Assembly (NCBI GenBank): GCA_964244895.1
Contig: CAXTKV010000161.1
Span: 1-12,465 of the forward strand
DNA length: 12,465 bases
From: an uncultured Deinococcales bacterium
GTDB taxonomy: Bacteria > Deinococcota > Deinococci > Deinococcales > JAAFIG01
Direction: 5' to 3'
The position numbers and the translations under genes are program-made. Each line of letters begins with the position of its first letter. Positions within the stretch are counted from its first letter, which is position 1. Shown piece after piece: positions 1 through 12,465 of this stretch. The notes beneath the pieces were generated by a model, which was not told where the DNA came from, made no database searches, and saw only the letters and a list, made by a program, of their open reading frames with translations.

Positions 1-21
1 GAGGATCGGATGCCGGTGTGA
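1..21 (+). CDS. Possible 3' end of an upstream gene (tnsC/tniB expected from context; only 6 codons visible, EDRMPV*)
   Basis: Frame 1 is open from base 1 to TGA at 19-21. That stop overlaps the tniQ GTG start as GTGA, the same 4-nt coupling used by the next two junctions. Identity is inferred from position only. Confidence 0.35.
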   Translation, partial: EDRMPV

Positions 22-977
22 AAGCCGTTAGCCACACTTCGCTTGACACGCCCGAGCTGTTTGAGTCATGGATCATGCGGCTGGGTCAAGCAAACATGAT
101 TCCAACGCCTCGGCTGGTCGAAGTATTGCAGCTTCGTCACGCGTTGTCGTCCTCGAATCATGTTTCTGCAGACGCTTTCCAACTACTCTCGAGTGTGACA
201 GGCGTATCGGATGTCCGAATCCGCGAGTCTCACCTGACGACTTTCAGTCGATACACGGAGTCCGTTTACAATGTCAAGTATGTCATTCCCGCCCGTACCC
301 AAGCTAAGTATTCAATTCCTTTTAAACCTTGCCCTCGCTGTCTAAACGAGTCAGATCGACCATATATTCGTCTGCATTGGGCGCTGGATCTCAGCTGCTT
401 TTGCGCCGTTCATCATTCGGTCCTGCTGGCCCGGTGTGTCAAATGCGGCAGTTTCTTTTCTCTCAAAGTGACCGAACCTGAGATTCCAATCCACCAATGC
501 CGCAAGTGTGGGTTCGATCTGCGCAACATCACCCCACGCGCTACGCCAGGGTTCGCAGAAGCCATCACTTTCCAAACGCGCCTCCTCGAGATGAAGCGAG
601 ACGCTGTCGTCAATTGGCCTGGAATTCGCTTGAAGGAACCCGCTGCGTTCGCTCAGATCGTTCAACGCCTCTTCCGAGCGCTTTGTGACACTCCGAGCCA
701 TCACGCACTCAGCGAGTTTACAGAGGAGTCATTCCGCTCGAACGTCCATCTGTTGGACGACCGATTCTCCTTTGAAATCAGAAGAACCAATGCGCTTTCC
801 ATGACAGCTTGGTTCCTGAGTAAACCAAGCTCGCATTGGGCAGCGCTCGGCCCACATCTCAGGCGGAATCTTCCATTGGAAGTGAGCGACAGGATCGCGG
901 TGGCCATGTGGCACGCTTTCAACGCTGCAGCAGCTTCAGTCGGTGTGCTCGAGCGGTCGAACGCGCTGACCTCGTGA
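18..977 (+). CDS. tniQ: TniQ family target-selector protein (319 aa)
   Basis: N-terminal PELFESWIMRLGQAN matches the TniQ E-x-x-SW-x-x-RL-x-x-x-N pattern. The Zn-finger cluster CPRCL...PYIRLHW...CAVH...LLARCVKCG...CRKCGFDL is characteristic of TniQ/TnsD. The length fits TniQ rather than a long TnsD. Confidence 0.9.
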   Translation: MKAVSHTSLDTPELFESWIMRLGQANMIPTPRLVEVLQLRHALSSSNHVSADAFQLLSSVTGVSDVRIRESHLTTFSRYTESVYNVKYVIPARTQAKYSIPFKPCPRCLNESDRPYIRLHWALDLSCFCAVHHSVLLARCVKCGSFFSLKVTEPEIPIHQCRKCGFDLRNITPRATPGFAEAITFQTRLLEMKRDAVVNWPGIRLKEPAAFAQIVQRLFRALCDTPSHHALSEFTEESFRSNVHLLDDRFSFEIRRTNALSMTAWFLSKPSSHWAALGPHLRRNLPLEVSDRIAVAMWHAFNAAAASVGVLERSNALTS

Positions 978-3688
978 AGCAGTTCGGACTCGAAGTTTGG
1001 GGCGATTTTGCGTGTTTCTCTCGGCCCGAATTGAAAGTCGAGCGTTACACATATCCGGTCATCACGCCGAGCGCCGCTCGCGCCATCTTCGACGCGATTT
1101 ACCTCAACTTTGATGGCGGTACGCCAAATCGCCCCACCTTTCGCTGGCAGGTAAGACGCATCGAGGTGGTCGAACCCGTGCACTACATTGCGCTGTCCCA
1201 GAACGAGGTCAAAGGGAAAATCCACACTGACAAAGTAGCGCTGTGGATGACGCACTCGGAGCAAATCGAACCTTTGATCGCCGACGCACGAGGCAAAGGA
1301 ACGGAAGAGTACGGTCGGACCCAGCGCCAAACGATTGGCCTGCGACGGGTGCGCTACCGGTTGTTCGCCGAGGCGGTGCTGTACGAGGAGAATCACACCC
1401 TGAGGCAGCTCATCGAAAAGATCTTCGCGCGACGCGCCCGCGCCGGCCAGTGCTACCACCAGCCGTGCCTCGGGCAACGCGAGTTCGGAGCGTACTTCGA
1501 GCTGGTCGAGACGCAAAGTGGACGCTGCGCCGCCGTCAACGAGGACATCGGCTGGATGGTCTACGACGTGTTCGACCTGTCCCGACCGGGTTCGAGTTCG
1601 GACCCGTGGAGTATCAGCACATTTCGCGCCCACGTCCGGGATGGCGTACTCGAGGTTCCACCGTACTCAAGCGAGGACGTCCACAAGTCAGGTTTGGCGC
1701 AATCGTTGCGCGAGCGTGGAAGTCCCCAAGTCGGGTCTGGCGCAACTGGGATGTTCGAAGCGCTCGTCGAGTACGCTCGGCGTACGGGGCTGGCGACCGA
1801 ACCGGGGTTCAGCGAGAAGGTCGTCCGCTGGATAGCGAACGTGAATCTTGATGGGGTGATCACGTCGGTCGCCCCTGCTGATCCCCTCAAAGGCCGTGCG
1901 GTCGTGTTCGCGTGCTGCCCAGATTTGCAACTCCCCGCGATCAAGGCGCTACCGGCGGCGCTCGGGAGGATGGAAAATGGGATCGCCGTTAAGCAAGGTG
2001 CGCACTTCCTCGCGGACACGTGCAGCACGGTTGGTCTGTTCCCGAACGGGTTGGACAGCAATCACAAAATCCTCGACAAGCACCGAGTTTTCACCCATCT
2101 AATCGAGCGGGCGAGTTGGATCATTCCCGAACTTCGACCAATTCATAGCGCACTGTCTGAGGCGAGTTTCCTCGTTCAGATACACGCCATGTTAATCGGG
2201 TGCGGGGCGAAACCAACGGATCGCCTGTCGTTCTCAGTCGATGGAGTTCCGGTGCCCGACATGAACGTCTGGCATTCTTGGTGGCGGGCATTCCGTGAAG
2301 AGGCATCCCCACGCAAACTGGAACGCAACATGGTGTGCCTCGCCACGGGAGAACGCGTCGTTCCAGCGAGAACGCATCCAAGACTCACCTCGCTGGGCGT
2401 GGGCGCTTCGAGTGTTGGAGCCAGCCTGATCGCCTCTGGCAAAGAAGCGTTCAGCTCGTCGAGCTTCCGTCAGGGTGAAAACAGCGCGCTCTCGGAGGAC
2501 GCCGCTTCGGCCTACACATCCGCGCTCGATCACCTGTTGCGCAGAGCGCCCGTCATCGACGGAACAAAAGTTGTTCACTGGTACAGCACCGATACGTCGA
2601 CGAGCCTCGATCCGCTCGCGCTGCTGTTTCAGCCCAGCGAAGTGCGCGAACTCGAAAATTTTTCATCTCGAACGTCCCTCACCAGCAGCGAAATTCGCGC
2701 GTTCGCCGACTGGCCCGGTTTACCCAATGCGCAATACCACGTCATGGTCGTGCGAGGCGCGAAGGCGCGCGCCCGCGTCAGGTTTTTTGCCTCTGGCACA
2801 CAGGAGCAGGCGGTGGCGGCGGTGAGCGCATGGTTCGCTGATTTAGAGGTCTGCACCATCTCTGGCGACGGCTCAACGAGCGCAACGCCCGCCAAACTCT
2901 TGGCGTCCATCAAGAAACCCATTGACAACGACAACGCGGAGGGGAACCGGAACAAGACCTTGCATTCCCTGCACGTTCGGCTCTGGCAGACTGCCCTTGA
3001 CCCGGCGGTTCCGGTGCCGATCTCGGTCGCGAACGACATCTTGACAACTCTCTACCGCAGTCTGGCGAATCGAGACTTCCAGAAAGCCGTGGCGTACACG
3101 CCCGCAACGTGGAATTCCACGTTGCGAGACACGTTACACGCTTGCATGGGGGGCCTCAAGGGGTATCTCGTCCGCGCTGGCGACCACGACATCACTGTCA
3201 ATCTGAACCCAAACCACCCGAGCGCGAATTATCAATCCGGTCGCTTGGCGGCGCTTCTTCATCGGATCGAGGAAATCGCTAACTCAAACCCGAGCAGTAA
3301 CAGTCACCAGGTATTTGCAGCGTCCATCGCAGGATTGATCGAAAGGCTTGATCGGCAGACGCGAACCGTCAAACGCAGCTTGGATTGGATCGCTGCCGCA
3401 CGTCCGTGGTTGGCCTTGGCGCTCGAATCGTATCTCGAGCGCATCTGGGAAAGCCTCGGCAGTGCTGTGCCCAGAAACAACAGTCCCAAAGCTCGAAGCC
3501 TCTTCATCCTCGGGTACTACCAGCAGCTCGCGTTCAACAATTCGAAACGTACCGCCAATCCAGCAGCTGAGTTCGATCTCGAAGACGGGGACGACACGAA
3601 TGAGGAAATGGATGACCTGTTTGAAACTATCGCAGACCAATCGGGGATGTCAGTCCAAAGTGATGACAACAAGGAGAGACACGAATGA
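974..3688 (+). CDS. cas5c-cas8c: Fused type I-C Cas5c (Cas5d) - Cas8c (Csd1) protein, about 904 aa from GTG 974
   Basis: The N-terminal part has Cas5c motifs (LEVWGDFACFSRPELKVERYTYPVITPSAARAIFDAIY, GQCYHQPCLGQREF). After a G/S-rich linker, MFEALVEYARR at 1751 begins Cas8c, with MVCLATGE...ARTHP, GASLI, YQSGRLAALL and FILGYYQQ motifs. No stop lies between the two parts. GTG 974 overlaps the tniQ stop (GTGA), so it is preferred over the ORF-track start at 836. Confidence 0.9.
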   Translation: MKQFGLEVWGDFACFSRPELKVERYTYPVITPSAARAIFDAIYLNFDGGTPNRPTFRWQVRRIEVVEPVHYIALSQNEVKGKIHTDKVALWMTHSEQIEPLIADARGKGTEEYGRTQRQTIGLRRVRYRLFAEAVLYEENHTLRQLIEKIFARRARAGQCYHQPCLGQREFGAYFELVETQSGRCAAVNEDIGWMVYDVFDLSRPGSSSDPWSISTFRAHVRDGVLEVPPYSSEDVHKSGLAQSLRERGSPQVGSGATGMFEALVEYARRTGLATEPGFSEKVVRWIANVNLDGVITSVAPADPLKGRAVVFACCPDLQLPAIKALPAALGRMENGIAVKQGAHFLADTCSTVGLFPNGLDSNHKILDKHRVFTHLIERASWIIPELRPIHSALSEASFLVQIHAMLIGCGAKPTDRLSFSVDGVPVPDMNVWHSWWRAFREEASPRKLERNMVCLATGERVVPARTHPRLTSLGVGASSVGASLIASGKEAFSSSSFRQGENSALSEDAASAYTSALDHLLRRAPVIDGTKVVHWYSTDTSTSLDPLALLFQPSEVRELENFSSRTSLTSSEIRAFADWPGLPNAQYHVMVVRGAKARARVRFFASGTQEQAVAAVSAWFADLEVCTISGDGSTSATPAKLLASIKKPIDNDNAEGNRNKTLHSLHVRLWQTALDPAVPVPISVANDILTTLYRSLANRDFQKAVAYTPATWNSTLRDTLHACMGGLKGYLVRAGDHDITVNLNPNHPSANYQSGRLAALLHRIEEIANSNPSSNSHQVFAASIAGLIERLDRQTRTVKRSLDWIAAARPWLALALESYLERIWESLGSAVPRNNSPKARSLFILGYYQQLAFNNSKRTANPAAEFDLEDGDDTNEEMDDLFETIADQSGMSVQSDDNKERHE

Positions 3689-4725
3689 ATCCGATCCAGA
3701 ACCGATACGAATTTCTAATCATTTTCGACTGCGAAAATGGCAACCCAAATGGCGACCCCGACGCTGGGGATCTGCCCCGTATGGACATTGAGGACGGGCA
3801 CGGTCAAGTCTCATCTGGATCAATCAAGCGACGAATTCGCGATTACGCTCACCTGCTCGGAGAAGCCATCCTCATTCAACGCTCGAGCAACATCAACAAA
3901 TCGATTTTTGAGGCTCGCGAGCAAACCGGCGATCCAAACGCCACTCCCACCATCAAACGTACGCAGGACGCCACCGCCTGGCTCTGCGAGAAGTTTTTCG
4001 ATGTGAGAACCTTCGGTGCAGTGCTGAGCACCGGCGCGAACGCGGGTCAAGTCACCGGCTCCGTGCAAATCAACTGGGCCAGAAGCATCGATCCCGTCCA
4101 CGTGATAGAAGCCACCATCACCCGAGTCGCTGTCACGGACAAGGCCGATGGAGCCAATTCCGTCGCGGACTTTGAAGATTGGGAGGCTGGGGAGGCCAGC
4201 GGTAGACTTCAGACGATGGGCCGCAAAAGCTTCATTCCCTACGGACTTTTTGTGGCCCCTGGCTTTGTGAGCGCGTTCCAGGCCCAGAGAACGGGCTTCT
4301 CGGAAGGCGATCTTGAGATTCTCTGCGAGGCCATCATGAATATGTTTGAACACAGCCGAACGTCGAGCAAAGGCATGATGTCAACCCGTCGGCTGATCGT
4401 ATTCAAACATTTGGGAACGAGAAAAGACCCTGAGCAGCAGGCACAGCAAGCCAAACTGGGCTGTGCACCTGCCCATAGGCTGCTCACGCTAGGACAAGTG
4501 GTCAGGATCCTTCGCCAAGATAAAACGCGACCGCCGAGAACCTACGCTGACTATACGGTGTCAGTGGATCAGAGCCAACTTCCAGTAGGCGTAGCCATGC
4601 TCGACCTCACCGTTTGGGATGCCGACGAGTTCCACAATGGATGGGTAGTGAAGCGCGAATCTCCAGTAGAGCCCGAAATCCGCAGAGGTTCGCGGAACAA
4701 GAGGACACCGTCAGGAACGAAATAA
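3685..4725 (+). CDS. cas7c: Type I-C Cascade backbone Cas7c (Csd2), 346 aa
   Basis: Motifs NRYEFLIIFDCENGNPNGDPDAGDLPRMD, IKRRIRDY, FFDVRTFGAV, TMGRKSFIPYGLF, AQRTGFSEGDL, MFEHSRTSSKG and LGCAPAHRL are typical of Csd2. There is an AAGGAG RBS and an ATGA overlap with the cas8c stop. Confidence 0.96.
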   Translation: MNPIQNRYEFLIIFDCENGNPNGDPDAGDLPRMDIEDGHGQVSSGSIKRRIRDYAHLLGEAILIQRSSNINKSIFEAREQTGDPNATPTIKRTQDATAWLCEKFFDVRTFGAVLSTGANAGQVTGSVQINWARSIDPVHVIEATITRVAVTDKADGANSVADFEDWEAGEASGRLQTMGRKSFIPYGLFVAPGFVSAFQAQRTGFSEGDLEILCEAIMNMFEHSRTSSKGMMSTRRLIVFKHLGTRKDPEQQAQQAKLGCAPAHRLLTLGQVVRILRQDKTRPPRTYADYTVSVDQSQLPVGVAMLDLTVWDADEFHNGWVVKRESPVEPEIRRGSRNKRTPSGTK

Positions 4726-4820
4726 ACTGGATTTTGACGAGTACGACGTGGCCCTTCATTAGCCAATAATTCGGAGTCCGCGTTTCAAGGTCGAAGAAAC
4801 TCGTGCTTTACACATTGGAG

Positions 4821-4826
4821 TATGAT
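4821..4826 (+). promoter_or_regulatory. Possible -10 element (TATGAT) for the CRISPR array
   Basis: TATGAT lies 4 nt before repeat 1, in the 105-bp gap between cas7 and the array. No convincing -35 was seen. Confidence 0.3.
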
Positions 4827-4830
4827 CGCT

Positions 4831-5078
4831 GTCTTCACGGCTTTATCGCCGTCGAGATGATTGAAACAACCCGCAACTCGCCGGACCGGCCATCGGTTCG
4901 ACCGCAGACCGTCTCCACGGCTTTATCGCCGTCGAGATGATTGAAACTGCTGCGAGGTCAGCAGCACCGTCCAGCCTGCGCCGAGTCTCCACGGCTTTAT
5001 CGCCATCGAGATGATTGAAACCGCAGCGAACTCGCGCTCTACCGGGGCTCCGAGCGTCTCCACGGCTTTATCGCCGTC
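4831..5078 (+). CRISPR. Mini CRISPR array: three full 37-bp repeats, one truncated terminal repeat, three spacers (43, 37, 34 bp)
   Basis: Consensus GTCTCCACGGCTTTATCGCCGTCGAGATGATTGAAAC at 4831-4867 (one change), 4911-4947 and 4985-5021 (one change), with a 23-nt partial copy at 5056-5078. The repeat has an ACGGC/GCCGT hairpin and a 3' ATTGAAAC handle. Spacers are 4868-4910, 4948-4984 and 5022-5055. Confidence 0.95.
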
Positions 5079-5249
5079 TATACGACTGGCCCCCGCTGAA
5101 ATCATCGCGCTGACGGCAGGTCTCAAAGTCTTCATAAGGTTTTGATTATCAGTCGAAAATTTACTGGGCATTTGTCGAAATTGGATCAAGATTCCAATCG
5201 TTCTGTTGGATGTATGCTCTTCTCGTTTAAAACGCTCAATCCATTGAGC

Positions 5250-5309
5250 GCCTCTACAACCCTTGGTTGTCGAGATGATTGAAACCACCGACAGATCATC
5301 GAAGGCGTG
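5250..5309 (+). CRISPR. Delocalised atypical repeat (5250-5285) plus putative homing spacer (5286 to about 5309)
   Basis: GCCTCTACAACCCTTGGTTGTCGAGATGATTGAAAC shares its last 17 nt with the array repeat and keeps the hairpin as ACAAC/GTTGT. The following CACCGACAGATCATCGAAGGCGTG matches minus-strand 5617-5594 at 17/24 positions, next to TTC. Confidence 0.85.
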
Positions 5310-5400
5310 TTTTTATGGATACCCAGATCTTGCATCTTCCAAAAAGCACAAAAGCTAAACCGCAGAATTGTTAAACGTTTCAAAACTAACCATGATTTAT

Positions 5401-5550
5401 TGCTGACGTGGCTAACGATAAAATCCTTTAGGTTCACGAATCAAATTGACGTATAGAACGGAGATGTTTACGATTCCCAAGATTACTGACGTGGCAAACG
5501 ATACTGACACGTCAAACGATCATTGCTGACATTTTAAACGAAAAGCCACA
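5401..5550. repeat. Transposon end: five TnsB-binding-site-like direct repeats and terminal ACA (5'-TGTGGCTT on the minus strand)
   Basis: The motif CTGAC-N5-AAACGA occurs at about 5403 (ctgacgtggctaacga), 5446 (ttgacgtatagaacgg, degenerate), 5486 (ctgacgtggcaaacga), 5504 (ctgacacgtcaaacga) and 5526 (ctgacattttaaacga). The last copy is about 9 bp from terminal ACA at 5550. This fits Tn7-family TGT...ACA end architecture. Confidence 0.85.
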
Positions 5551-5555
5551 CGATG
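5551..5555 (+). other. Predicted 5-bp target-site duplication (CGATG)
   Basis: These are the five bases right after the terminal ACA, and Tn7-family elements make 5-bp TSDs. The second copy cannot be seen in this window. Confidence 0.45.
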
Positions 5556-5569
5556 CCTGACTCAGCACC

Positions 5570-6421
5570 TCAACCCTTGACGCCCGTCAGAACGACACCC
5601 TCGATGATCTGCTTCTGGAAGATCACGAACACCGCCAGCACGGGAATCACGGCCAAACTGGAAGCCGCCATGATCAACTGCCATTGCGAGCCCGTCTCGC
5701 CGCTGAAACGCGCGATGCCGAGCGGCAAGGTGAACAGGTCAGCGCTGGTCGTGACGATCAACGGCCACAGGAACGCGTTGTAATTACCCAGGAACGTGAA
5801 GATCGCCAGCGCCGCCAGCGCGGGCCGCACGAGCGGCAGGCCGATCTTTGAAAACAAGCCGAATTCGGAGAGTCCATCCAGGCGCGCGGCATCGAAGAGC
5901 TCGTCCGGGATGCCCTCGAAGAAACCCCGCATCAAAAAGACGCCGAAAGCCGAAATCAATCCCGGCAGGGCGATCGCCAGATACGAATTGTTGATGCCGA
6001 GCTTGATCGCGCCGACGTACCACGGGATGACCAGCATTTCCGTGGGGATCATCAGCGTTGAGAGGATCACGACGAAAATGATTTCCTTGCCGGGGAATTT
6101 CATTTTGGCCAGCGTGTAGCCGACCAGCGAATCGAAGAACAGCACGCTGGCGGTCGTGGCCGCCGCGACCCCGATGGAGTTCAGGAACCAGCGCGGGAAT
6201 TCGGTTCTGGACAGGATTTCAACGTAGTTGCCGAGCGTCGGCACGGCCCGCGCGGGCCAGATGCCGGGTTGCAGCGCGTCCGCGTAGCTTTTCAGGCTGG
6301 TCAACAGCATCCACACGAACGGGAAGGCCGTGACGATGCTGCCCGCGATCAAGAGCGCGTAGACCCACCACGGCCCATCGCGCCGTTTTTCTCGAGGTTG
6401 CTTCATCGCACCCGCCGCCAT
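5570..6421 (-). CDS. Carbohydrate ABC transporter permease (MalG/UgpE-like), 283 aa
   Basis: Multiple TM helices, PFVWMLLTSLK, the EAA-loop variant IPDELFDAARLDGLSEF, NYNAFLWPLIV and C-terminal FQKQIIEGV. Start is 6421 or the ATG five codons later. Confidence 0.95.
   Translation of the reverse strand: MAAGAMKQPREKRRDGPWWVYALLIAGSIVTAFPFVWMLLTSLKSYADALQPGIWPARAVPTLGNYVEILSRTEFPRWFLNSIGVAAATTASVLFFDSLVGYTLAKMKFPGKEIIFVVILSTLMIPTEMLVIPWYVGAIKLGINNSYLAIALPGLISAFGVFLMRGFFEGIPDELFDAARLDGLSEFGLFSKIGLPLVRPALAALAIFTFLGNYNAFLWPLIVTTSADLFTLPLGIARFSGETGSQWQLIMAASSLAVIPVLAVFVIFQKQIIEGVVLTGVKG
5594..5620 (-). other. Putative protospacer (5617 to 5594) with 5' TTC PAM (5620-5618) inside the 3' end of the permease gene
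   Basis: The minus strand reads TTC|CAGAAGCAGATCATCGAGGGTGTC versus spacer CACCGACAGATCATCGAAGGCGTG. TTC is the established type I-C PAM and is exactly in register with spacer position 1. Confidence 0.75.
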
Positions 6422-7591: not shown

Positions 7592-7650
7592 ACCGTTCAG
7601 GACTCATTTTCTCGAGCATCCGATGTTGCGTCCTGGACGGTCTTCTCGAG
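7592..7650. repeat. REP-like palindrome copy B
   Basis: Arms ACCGTTCAGGACTC (7592-7605) and GCGTCCTGGACGGT (7628-7641) with 2 mismatches, followed by CTTCTCGAG. The loop resembles that of copy C. Confidence 0.65.
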
Positions 7651-7921: not shown

Positions 7922-8866
7922 ATGAAAAAGGCTTTGATTCTGACGGCGGCATTCTTTCTTTCGGCCTGCAATACCACGCCAGTGACGGGTTCAGACGCGG
8001 TTCTGGCGGTGCAAAGTGCTCCCGGTCATACCGGGGTTGGACCATCCGGTTGGATCATGGCGGGCGCTGGTGATTTTGATGGCGATGGCAAAACCGATGA
8101 TCTGGTCTGGCGGAACTACAAATCCGGGCAAAACGTCGTCTGGTTGATGGAAGGCTCGAGCATCGTCGGTTCAGGCTGGCTGCCCAGTGCGACGCTGGAT
8201 TGGGTGATCGGGGCGGTGGGCGACATGGACGGCGATGGTCGCCGCGATGACATCGTCTGGCGCAACCGCAGCAATTTCTCAAACGCGATCTGGTTCATGG
8301 ACGGCTACACCATCACCAGTGCGACAGGCTTCACCGACGGCTCCACGCTCGGTCACTTCAACAACGGTGTGCGCGACGACCCCGAAGGGCCAGGCTGGGA
8401 AATCAAAGGGGCGGGCGATTTCAACGGCGATGGTTACGGCGATGTGCTTTGGCGTCACGGCCCACACGGCGAAAACGCCATCTGGTACATGAGGGGCGCC
8501 ACCTTCTTAGGGGCAGCCGCGTTGCCACGAACCACTGATCCACAATGGGACATCGTGGGCGTGGGAGACATGAACGGTGACGGTCAAAGCGATATCGTCT
8601 GGCAGCACTGGCCCCAGCCCATCCCTGGAACCCCAAAAATAGATCGGGTCAACAGCATCTGGTTCATGAATGGTTCCTCGGTGACGAGCTACAGCCTCGC
8701 CGCGTCCGCAGGAGATCCGGGCTGGGTCATTCAGACGATCGGGGAAAACAATGGCGATGGCAAAGGGGACATGTACTGGCGCTATGACCCAACGGGCGAT
8801 TGCGTGTACTGGAACATGAACGGCACGACACCCATAAGCGGCGCGTACTTTGCTACAGTTTTCTGA
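7922..8866 (+). CDS. Lipoprotein with FG-GAP/VCBS-like repeats (probable Ca-binding beta-propeller), 314 aa
   Basis: Signal peptide and lipobox MKKALILTAAFFLSA-C. Five repeats of W-x-I-x-G-x-G-D-F/M-D/N-G-D-G-x-x-D-I/L-V-W-R followed by N-x-I/V-W-x-M-x-G. A G-rich RBS (CAGGGGG) precedes the start. Confidence 0.9.
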   Translation: MKKALILTAAFFLSACNTTPVTGSDAVLAVQSAPGHTGVGPSGWIMAGAGDFDGDGKTDDLVWRNYKSGQNVVWLMEGSSIVGSGWLPSATLDWVIGAVGDMDGDGRRDDIVWRNRSNFSNAIWFMDGYTITSATGFTDGSTLGHFNNGVRDDPEGPGWEIKGAGDFNGDGYGDVLWRHGPHGENAIWYMRGATFLGAAALPRTTDPQWDIVGVGDMNGDGQSDIVWQHWPQPIPGTPKIDRVNSIWFMNGSSVTSYSLAASAGDPGWVIQTIGENNGDGKGDMYWRYDPTGDCVYWNMNGTTPISGAYFATVF

Positions 8867-8919: not shown

Positions 8920-8983
8920 AGAAGACCGTCCGGGACGCGTTTTTTCGAGCATCAAACGGGGCGTCCCGGACGGTCTTCTCGAG
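8920..8983. repeat. REP-like palindrome copy C
   Basis: Perfect 19-bp arms AGAAGACCGTCCGGGACGC (8920-8938) and GCGTCCCGGACGGTCTTCT (8961-8979), ending in CTCGAG. Confidence 0.75.
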
Positions 8984-10569: not shown

Positions 10570-10639
10570 CTCGAGGAAAACCGTCTGGGACGCATTTCTT
10601 CGAGATTCAGATTTCGCGCGCTGGACGGTATCTCTCGAG
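10570..10639. repeat. REP-like palindrome copy D (degenerate)
   Basis: CTCGAGgaaaACCGTCTGGGACGC ... GCGCGCTGGACGGTatctCTCGAG, immediately after the stop of the kinase gene. Confidence 0.6.
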
Positions 10640-12290: not shown

Positions 12291-12334
12291 GCGTATTCGT
12301 TTGAGACGCGGACGAAAGTCTGCATACTCAGTCC

Positions 12335-12465
12335 ATGACGCGTTTTTTCGACCCCCAATCGGCCCTTGAGTCCTTCACTTCTGACTACCGCGATCTCTTT
12401 CATGACCAGCGGTTGTTCAAGGGCTTTCAAGCCACCATCACTGGCATCCTCGCCAGTGGAACAAC
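12335..12465 (+). CDS. 5' part of an ORF running off the window; possibly a DDE (IS4/IS701-like) transposase
   Basis: Open frame MTRFFDPQSALESFTSDYRDLFHDQRLFKGFQATITGILASGT, preceded by TTGAGA-16-CATACT-6-ATG. The transposase call rests only on a remembered resemblance of LFxDxRL...GIL to IS4-superfamily N-termini. Confidence 0.45.
   Translation, partial: MTRFFDPQSALESFTSDYRDLFHDQRLFKGFQATITGILASGT

Follow-up and report, generated by a model that had tools for sequence, protein, structure and literature searches.

The window analysed here is the entire 12,465-bp contig C161 of the 5.12-Mb, 328-contig assembly of an uncultured Deinococcales bacterium (genome G000), and it contains the right arm of a Tn7-like transposon with a co-opted type I-C Cascade (TniQ, Cas5-Cas8c and Cas7) together with the host gene beside which this transposon is inserted. 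The cas genes are followed by a short CRISPR array, and between this array and the transposon end lies a single diverged copy of the array repeat, at 5250-5285, with a spacer that resembles the host DNA just beyond the element. This repeat and its spacer very probably form a homing guide, a delocalised unit that would direct the CRISPR-associated transposon (CAST) to its chromosomal attachment (att) site. A delocalised homing guide had been proposed in a preliminary description of this DNA, and the proposal held: the match in the flank adjoins a type I-C protospacer-adjacent motif (PAM) at a fixed distance from the element end, and the same layout was found in three related transposons. The features of the locus are as follows.

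18-977, plus strand: tniQ, 319 aa (Pfam TniQ PF06527, E = 2.6e-12); the contig begins just upstream
974-3688, plus strand: cas5-cas8c fusion; the frame is open from 836, with a likely GTG start at 974 that overlaps the tniQ stop
3685-4725, plus strand: cas7 (Csd2, type I-C; Pfam Cas_Cas7, E = 9.4e-82; NCBIfam Cas7/Csd2, 266.5 bits, cut-off 182.25)
4831-5092, plus strand: CRISPR array, with intact 37-nt repeats at 4831-4867, 4911-4947 and 4985-5021 and spacers of 43, 37 and 34 nt
5250-5285, plus strand: atypical delocalised repeat, 36 nt, GCCTC-T-ACAAC-CCTTG-GTTGT-C-GAGAT-GATTGAAAC
5286-5320, plus strand: putative homing spacer, its complementary part at positions 1-23 (5286-5308); no second repeat after it
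5399-5420, 5482-5503 and 5522-5543, plus strand: three TnsB-type binding-site repeats of 22 nt (direct-repeat family D9), spaced 83 and 40
5544-5550, plus strand: terminal bases of the transposon (...GCCACA), the element ending at 5550
5551-5555, no strand: 5-bp target-site duplication CGATG, the identical five bases preceding the left end on contig C202
5584-5620, minus strand: putative protospacer with TTC PAM, position 1 at 5617 and running down to about 5584, PAM at 5620-5618, within the last codons of the permease gene
5570-6421, minus strand: attachment-site gene, encoding a carbohydrate-type ATP-binding cassette (ABC) transporter permease (UgpE/MalG-like; Pfam BPD_transp_1; NCBIfam UgpE/MalG-like matches under their cut-offs)

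The typical repeat of the array reads GTCTC-C-ACGGC-TTTATC-GCCGT-C-GAGAT-GATTGAAAC, and its comparison with the unit at 5250-5285 bore out what had been described at first sight. The stem changes are real, pairs 9-20 and 10-19 having passed from G-C to A-U on both sides; the loop differs and has lost one base; and no change affects the 3' 17 nt, the 17-mer GTCGAGATGATTGAAAC occurring exactly three times in the assembly (4851, 4931 and 5269). Two changes beyond those described earlier were also found, U2 to C, by which the lower stem loses its second pair, and C6 to U, which alters an unpaired position. The distance of about 170 bp past the array given in the preliminary description applies if 5078, the point up to which its degenerate terminal repeat is still similar, is counted as the array end, whereas it is 157 nt when measured from 5092 and 228 nt when the last intact repeat is the starting point; the terminal repeat itself (5056-5092) has kept its hairpin half and lost its 3' handle. 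The same hairpin was predicted for the atypical repeat (-10.1 kcal/mol, z = -2.95) as for the typical ones (-14.6, -12.8 and -9.2 kcal/mol), and apart from the arms of this hairpin no short repeats were found around the unit.

A covariance model was trained on 13 typical repeats from four elements, namely that of the window and the three relatives described below, with the atypical repeats excluded. The intact repeats of the window scored 50-53.5 bits with this model, and the next-best matches were the atypical repeats of the four elements (36.6, 29.9, 25.7 and 20.2 bits), 5250-5285 being found at 25.7 bits (E = 5e-6) with the terminal array repeat just below it at 19.8 bits. In none of the four elements did the model find a repeat 3' of the homing spacer. 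All ten substitutions of the atypical repeat fall within columns 1-20, and the chance that none would fall within the 3' 17 of the 37 columns is 5e-4.

The alignment of the spacer with the flank is ungapped, with 17 matches in 24 positions (16 of 20 when the sixth positions are left out), an exact stretch at positions 7-17, and mismatches at positions 3, 4, 5, 6, 18, 21 and 24. Position 1 of the spacer, directly after the repeat handle, falls on the PAM-adjacent base, 67 bp from the element end. TTC is the usual PAM of type I-C systems. For the I-C system of Xanthomonas, this motif is stated in the accessible text of PMC8406640. When positions 1-24 minus every sixth were scored, an equal score was obtained at only 29 other sites of 10,234,780 in the assembly, and a TTC PAM was found at none of the 24 that were listed among these 29; at that rate, about 1.4e-5 matches would be expected within the five offsets 65-69 on one strand. 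The weight of the flank match derives from its place, strand and PAM, and from the relatives.

With up to three mismatches allowed, the same spacer was found in 51 of the 363 other genomes of Deinococcota, and a control in which it was read backwards was found in none. At seven of nine loci that were fetched, the match corresponds to the C-terminus FQRQIIEGVVLTGVKG, followed by the stop codon, of an orthologous permease, and the PAM is TTC in six and TTT in one; the remaining two are unrelated places. The usual mismatches between spacer and orthologue lie at positions 3 and 6 and at one wobble base. Permease orthologues of 72-79% identity were present in 16 of 18 genomes of the host's family, and in the window the permease ends in FQKQIIEGVVLTGVKG, again followed by the stop codon, with the insertion, accompanied by its 5-bp duplication, about 20 bp beyond that codon. 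Judged from these alignments, the guide appears to be aimed at a conserved gene end and to suit the consensus of the family better than the host's own copy.

Related elements provided a second line of evidence. A TniQ profile run over 364 Deinococcota genomes, the window's included, found close relatives in four only, all of one family (E = 1e-59 to 1e-190 for the relatives), the three others being L013 (genome G007, on a contig of a Deinococcales metagenome-assembled genome), L048 (genome G008) and L049 (genome G018). Each of these three has tniQ, separate cas5 and cas8c genes, cas7 and a short array, and each of the four elements has exactly one atypical repeat outside its array. In L048 this repeat lies 176 nt past the last array repeat and on the same strand, as in the window; in L013 it lies on the opposite strand past 3 kb of cargo, and in L049 on the opposite strand upstream of tniQ. 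In all four elements, the spacer of the lone repeat matches the element's own flank beyond the end with the TnsB sites, with the following targets, PAMs and distances from position 1 to the terminal base.

Window: 3' end of the ABC-permease gene, PAM TTC, 67 bp
L013: 3' end of a tRNA-Leu gene, PAM TTC (T-loop TTC), 66 bp
L048: D-arm of a tRNA gene with CAT anticodon, PAM CTC, 69 bp
L049: D-arm of a tRNA-Arg gene, PAM CTC, 65 bp

In each of the four cases, matching is restricted to approximately positions 1-23, and within these the mismatches are concentrated at positions 6, 12 and 18 (10 of 12, compared with 13 of 80 at the other positions; Fisher p = 8e-6). The sixth positions of the window coincide with codon third positions, a confound from which the tRNA cases are free, and with the tRNA targets only the values are 8 of 9 and 9 of 60 (p = 2e-5). 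The Cas7 backbones of type I complexes flip out every sixth base, so these positions would be free to drift. A sixth-position mismatch pattern was likewise noted for the homing guides of I-F3 elements in the accessible text of Petassi, Hsieh and Peters (2020; bioRxiv 10.1101/2020.07.02.184150).

Two other accounts of the locus bear directly on this comparison. The site might have been picked by protein, through DNA recognition of the TniQ/TnsD type and with the repeat-spacer unit uninvolved, a TnsD-type protein being what prototypic Tn7 and CASTs of types I-B1, I-B2 and I-D rely on for their chromosomal site (PMC9881144 and PMC11406308, in their accessible parts); this is very improbable for elements that have a single short TniQ (approximately 320 aa) beside the cas genes in four cases of four, and in which four related TniQs go with four sites, each matched by the element's own lone spacer. 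No second TniQ was seen beside the cas genes of the four elements. Alternatively, 5250-5285 could be the decaying leftover of a longer array, its resemblance to the flank being due to chance or to a captured scrap of the target. That the substitutions spare the 3' 17 nt (p = 5e-4), that the match begins at spacer position 1 beside the PAM, and that register, distance and sixth-position pattern are repeated in four elements with four targets make this hardly credible, even though CAST arrays do decay, as seen in the last array repeat without its handle, and though the internal 88% copy of the flanking tRNA region in L049 indicates that att-site DNA can enter elements. By identity, the match does equal two chance matches in the window.

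Several observations weigh against the interpretation of the unit as a homing guide or against parts of it. Plain identity is weak, as the flank match of 20 of 32 positions ties with the two chance matches elsewhere in the window. The host site has three consecutive mismatches in the seed (3, 4 and 5) plus one at 21. The element of the window is spread over at least three contigs, which are joined into one element on the strength of their matching ends and the duplication. The atypical repeats of L048 and L049 fold no better than shuffles, and random mutants with an equal number of changes folded as well in 2250 and 1601 of 5000 cases, respectively, which is no signal. The Lys-His pair of the Cas5c catalytic triad is not clearly kept in the Cas5 of the four CASTs, aligning to R..QL, LQ, KQ and KK. 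Finally, the strict form of a promoter-like motif that precedes the other three atypical repeats is absent before that of the window, where a weaker version was found approximately 10 nt further upstream.

The seed mismatches raise the question of whether the guide is real but, in this host, an inherited relic that is tuned to a permease ending in Gln-Arg-Gln and could not direct insertion at the Gln-Lys-Gln of the host. Many orthologues differ from the spacer only at positions 3 and 6 and a wobble base, compared with positions 3, 4, 5, 6, 18, 21 and 24 in the host copy, and within the family of the host the Lys codon is frequent. Seed mismatches of this kind would not be tolerated by canonical type I systems. 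Nevertheless, the distance of the element from this site is precisely the one expected and its 5-bp duplication is clean, so that such a guide must have acted here or at a very similar site; the repeat handle and the cas genes are intact; and I-F3 elements are reported to transpose efficiently with 10 mismatches to the att site (accessible text of bioRxiv 10.1101/2020.07.02.184150). A relic is thus an unlikely reading, one that retains some weight. The mismatches were also considered as escape mutations against self-targeting, and this was rejected: the host permease has a Lys codon (AAR) in place of Arg, Lys was found in 9 of 13 family orthologues read (at 3 further loci the stretch picked was not the permease end), and the codon is common in relatives without the insertion. 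Since the Lys codon is common in the host's family, the target site of the host appears, from these sequences, to be typical of its lineage rather than an escape mutant.

Over the 17 repeats, the hairpin is well supported, with 87.5% of cells paired, compared with 27-60% in slid controls, and the form is that of type I-C repeats, in which a single-stranded tail with ATTGAAAC at its end comes after a hairpin. The preliminary description had taken the compensatory changes as a sign of selection on the hairpin. Modest support for this came from the window and L013, in which 135 and 155 of 5000 random mutants with equal change number folded as well, so that the actual repeats fold better than approximately 97% of mutants, and none came from L048 and L049. 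Whether selection for processing has kept the hairpin is evenly balanced on this evidence. All four atypical repeats are altered at position 1 or 2, opening the base of the stem, and the parts preserved throughout are the tail and, at the stem base, the 3' strand. In the accessible text of PMC8524198, Cas5c enzymes are described as needing the cut site and the downstream tail rather than the loop, and only the Lys of the catalytic residues is said to be invariant; the kept parts of the atypical repeats fit this recognition.

It had further been claimed that the repeat is selected for processing by Cas5. The kept stem base and tail are the parts that Cas5c enzymes are reported to recognise, yet in the Cas5 of the element no clear Lys-His pair is retained, and such processing would be plausible at most. 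The closest PDB relatives of the fusion are Cas5c pre-CRISPR RNA endonucleases (E = 1e-37 to 1e-29), and Tyr occupies the first triad position in three of the four CAST Cas5 proteins; the mapping of the triad onto the fusion is ambiguous owing to a two-residue alignment gap at Lys-His. That the Cas5 domain of the element, rather than the Cas5c of the host, makes the cut is therefore a plausible proposal to which slightly less than even weight is given. Alternatively, and with lower probability, the 5' end of the guide might be provided in trans by host Cas5c, or by a transcription start near the repeat followed by trimming, the hairpin being kept for other reasons or only in part. The host does possess a full canonical I-C system with a 37-nt repeat that shares its last 9 nt with that of the transposon, the promoter-like motif would have transcription begin near the 5' border of the repeat, about its first bases, in three of the four elements, and the hairpins of L048 and L049 are weak, all of which speaks for this alternative, as does the want of a clear Lys-His pair. 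On the other side, the canonical Cas5c of the host also departs from the textbook residues (L, then K-Y), Tyr is present in three of four CAST proteins, and the Lys alone is said to be invariant; moreover, the unchanged parts of the repeat are those that Cas5c enzymes need.

The promoter-like motif, TTGNNN-N16-19-TANNNT, ends approximately 5 nt before the atypical repeat in three of four elements, at offsets of -33/-34, with a generous chance estimate of 1.5e-5. A separate scan of 4700-5570 for sigma-70 promoters and terminators gave one promoter-like site, inside the transposon end, and no terminators, which is no more than shuffles gave. An unrelated hairpin starting approximately 22-30 nt into the homing spacer was found in three of four elements, with none in L048; it may act as a terminator or replace the hairpin that an absent 3' repeat would have provided. 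The positions of the two features are given below.

L013, 8447-8418, minus strand: promoter-like motif
L048, 10719-10747: promoter-like motif
L049, 6415-6444: promoter-like motif
Window, 5307-5349: spacer hairpin, z = -1.9
L013, 8349-8307, minus strand: spacer hairpin, z = -3.2
L049, 6512-6552: spacer hairpin, z = -3.4

The following sequence of events may be proposed for the homing guide. Transcription of the unit would be followed by cleavage at the hairpin base, with 11 nt remaining as a handle, the lone repeat thereby supplying the 5' handle of a stand-alone guide RNA. This guide would pair over approximately 23 nt with the conserved 3' end of the permease gene beside the TTC PAM, and the target-bound Cascade-TniQ would then recruit TnsC and the TnsAB transposase. 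Insertion would follow 60-64 bp downstream of the first protospacer base, with the guide-bearing end nearest to the target. The three array spacers would be held apart from the homing guide, presumably for other targets; no convincing target for spacers 1-3 was found in the host assembly (best 24 of 30), and spacer 1 was unmatched in the plasmid collection.

A canonical type I-C system was found on another contig of the assembly (G000:C36:23700-32150), where a cas3 core lies together with cas5, cas7 and an array that numbers at least 19 repeats, and its 37-nt repeat ends in the same 9 nt, GATTGAAAC, as that of the transposon, the comparison covering this one host array. Given such a Cas3 system with a like repeat end, a guide that matches the chromosome beside a TTC PAM is a real hazard. 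Genomes G007 and G008 also have a canonical I-C cas3 and cas7, making three of the four hosts, while G018 is 57% complete; the cas3-core matches in the four hosts lie on other contigs than the elements, beside canonical operons. Its short match, mismatched seed, single repeat and loosened stem are candidate safeguards. The idea that the altered repeat and the short match privatise the guide by keeping it out of the host Cas3 pathway is speculative and less likely than not.

The remainder of the element conforms with what is expected of a CAST. The interval between tniQ and the array is occupied only by cas5-cas8c and cas7; no cas6-like open reading frame was found in this operon and no cas3 or adaptation genes were found in the window, cas1 and cas2 having had no dedicated search and the middle of the element being unassembled. 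Matches to Cas5c, Csd1 and Csd2 in the one operon provide the type I-C signature. The 950-aa frame of cas5-cas8c matches Pfam Cas_Cas5d at residues 52-275 and Cas_Csd1 at residues 314-898 (Csd1 E = 1.3e-48); with the NCBIfam models it exceeds the cut-off for Cas5c (104.9 bits, cut-off 85) and is under the equivalog cut-off for Cas8c/Csd1 (137.7 bits, cut-off 218.65). The stored gene call is 904 aa. In the three relatives cas5 and cas8c are separate genes that overlap or share a few bases (L013, 1187-1921 and 1918-3831; L048, 6796-7530 and 7527-9344; L049, 4638-5354 and 2788-4638), and their continuity in a single frame of the window may reflect either a genuine fusion or a misassembly where the two meet.

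The other end of the element was located through its TnsAB protein on contig C202 of the same assembly, where an inverted copy, TGTGGCTTTTC, was found. C202 and C198 each end within one half of a gene resembling a TnsA/TnsB fusion, and C198 also has a TniB-type tnsC. No further copies of the three TnsB sites of the window were found in the assembly at 17 or more of 22 positions, and the spacing of these sites, 82/83 and 40, recurs in L013 and L048. The element thus has Tn7-type transposition genes, inverted ends with several TnsB sites and a 5-bp duplication. The element of G008 is complete on one contig, where it extends over 48,819 bp from TGTGAATT to AATTCACA with CCTAT on both flanks and all genes present, the TnsAB-like gene and tnsC being at the far end and separated from tniQ by approximately 40 kb of cargo. 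In G007, matches to TnsA_N and Mu-transpos_C fall within one protein of 824-866 aa. A PDB sequence search with the 837-aa transposase of G008 gave no match.

The TniQ of the window shares 38% identity with that of L013, and its family is small, with 13 clusters at E <= 1e-30 among 1.84 billion representatives. A word-indexed homologue search with the fusion protein returned the protein itself and three distant matches only. When species genomes were scanned with the same protein, 15 loci were obtained, of which L013 is the related transposon; the other 14 were taken as ordinary I-C operons, judged solely from their lower cas5 plus cas8c identity. A scan of metagenomes with a two-sequence TniQ alignment gave 314 pattern matches and none that was confirmed, and the one metagenomic match to the degenerate repeat (L063) was rejected as due to chance, being a lone copy inside an open reading frame without an array. 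Among the species-representative genomes searched, the clade with a TnsAB-like fusion, a short TniB-type TnsC, TniQ, Cas5, Cas8c and Cas7 was found in one Deinococcota family only.

The element of G018 has peculiarities of its own. An IS4/5-family transposase gene lies between cas7 and the array (L049:848-1636, minus strand) and its tnsC (G018:C3:11239-12014) contains three stop codons, so the element may be decaying, and decay could explain its weak atypical hairpin. Just inside its end is a 100-bp copy, 88% identical, of the flanking tRNA-Arg region (L049:1-100 and 349-448), and this internal copy differs from the guide at seed positions 3 and 4. A gene for a Cro/C1-type helix-turn-helix protein adjoins the homing unit (L049:6656-6919, minus strand) and recalls the Xre regulators that control I-F3 homing guides.

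Other features of the assembly were recorded in passing. A second Tn7-like gene set was found at G000:C102:12297-16100, with Mu-transpos_C in a 703-aa frame and a TniQ-like frame of 447 aa. Four 28-29-nt repeats, of another type, form a mini-array after it, and no cas genes were seen in the interval; the set may belong to a further transposon with a guide, or to an element that entered next to an array. In the host flank of the window, a 314-aa FG-GAP repeat protein (7922-8866) is the source of direct repeats with a period of 150-195 nt that are unrelated to the guide. A family of intergenic repeats of 32-59 nt (…GTCC.GGACG…TTCTCGAG…) lies between flank genes at 7592-7650, 8925-8983, 10580-10638 and 12331-12362, and may be a host element akin to repetitive extragenic palindromic sequences.

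Targeting by I-C CASTs had been left unexplained by the reported absence of arrays and self-targeting spacers. Nine I-C CASTs were described by Rybarski et al. (2021; bioRxiv 10.1101/2021.08.16.456562), for which the accessible text reports no array and no atypical self-targeting spacer. These are likewise Tn7-like, with type I-C Cas5, Cas8c and Cas7 and without Cas3 and Cas1/2; their TniQ is placed beside TnsABC in that text, whereas in the present elements the cas operon begins with tniQ, and tnsAB-tnsC are located at the opposite end. A paper of 2024 (PMC11300857) stated that putative I-C CASTs encode no recognisable arrays, and in the accessible main text of a review of the same year (PMC11406308) the term 'I-C' never occurs. 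A homing guide of an I-C CAST was not found described in the literature searched, from which supplements were excluded and in which subscription journals were mostly outside the scope. The four elements would provide I-C CASTs with a guide, with TTC or CTC as the PAM, with insertion at 60-64 bp from the first protospacer base and with att sites, three of them tRNA genes and one the permease gene, and also with complete ends, in two cases with the target duplication.

It may tentatively be suggested that these elements form an undescribed clade of I-C CASTs, in which guides are categorised in a manner suited to a Cascade that lacks Cas6. Its homing guide would be a promoter-driven unit with a single repeat, a loosened stem base, complementarity of approximately 23 nt and often an unrelated hairpin after it; it would be usable by the Cascade-TniQ of the transposon and not by a co-resident Cascade-Cas3 that shares the 9-nt handle end and the TTC PAM, and in members that target tRNA genes the TTC of the T-loop, which is universally conserved, would serve directly as a PAM. 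The type I-C Cascade is the smallest, with three proteins and no Cas6, and is reduced to two here through the Cas5-Cas8c fusion. A working I-C CAST, if real, would thus be a compact candidate for programmable DNA insertion, and a single-repeat homing unit next to a canonical I-C Cas3 would permit a direct test of how self-targeting guides stay harmless.

Parallels for the individual traits exist in other CAST types. The cyanobacterial I-B2 and I-D elements have, according to the accessible text of PMC9881144, a similar transposase resembling a TnsA-TnsB fusion and a preference for tRNA att sites, and differ in that a TnsD-type protein finds the tRNA while Cascade serves other targets, whereas here it is the guide that matches the site. 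With I-F3 CASTs (Petassi, Hsieh and Peters, 2020; accessible text), the likeness includes an att-matching spacer that is separated by a gap, a diverged repeat, its stem being kept better than in most random mutants in two of the four elements here, the tolerance of mismatches, partly at every sixth position, a target at the conserved 3' end of a gene or in a small RNA gene, and the possible co-residence of a related canonical Cas3 system in the host. The analogy with I-F3 that had been drawn in the preliminary description therefore applies to the att-matching spacer, but not to the form of the unit, which has one repeat only instead of a repeat-spacer-repeat. The present elements differ further in that the effector is of type I-C and lacks Cas6, leaving Cas5 as the sole candidate processing enzyme, that the gap is approximately 160-230 nt or the unit lies kilobases away on the other strand, that the match extends over approximately 20-23 nt, and that the att site is at the CRISPR-proximal end of the element.

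The insertion of type V-K elements occurs approximately 60-66 bp from the PAM, close to the 60-64 bp found here. V-K CASTs, whose delocalised units are described in Rybarski et al. (2021; see also bioRxiv 10.1101/2021.02.06.429022), also resemble the present elements in having a single repeat-spacer unit outside the array with short complementarity, a tRNA gene adjoining the element as the usual target, and a short TnsC of the TniB type. They differ in their effector, the present elements having Cascade and neither Cas12k nor a trans-activating CRISPR RNA, in their truncated repeat, which is of full length here (36 nt), and in the PAM, here TTC or CTC. A specially marked chromosomal guide that is kept separate from the array is thus known for I-F3 and V-K CASTs, and what appears to be new here is its occurrence in a type I-C clade that has both its own array and a single-repeat delocalised guide.

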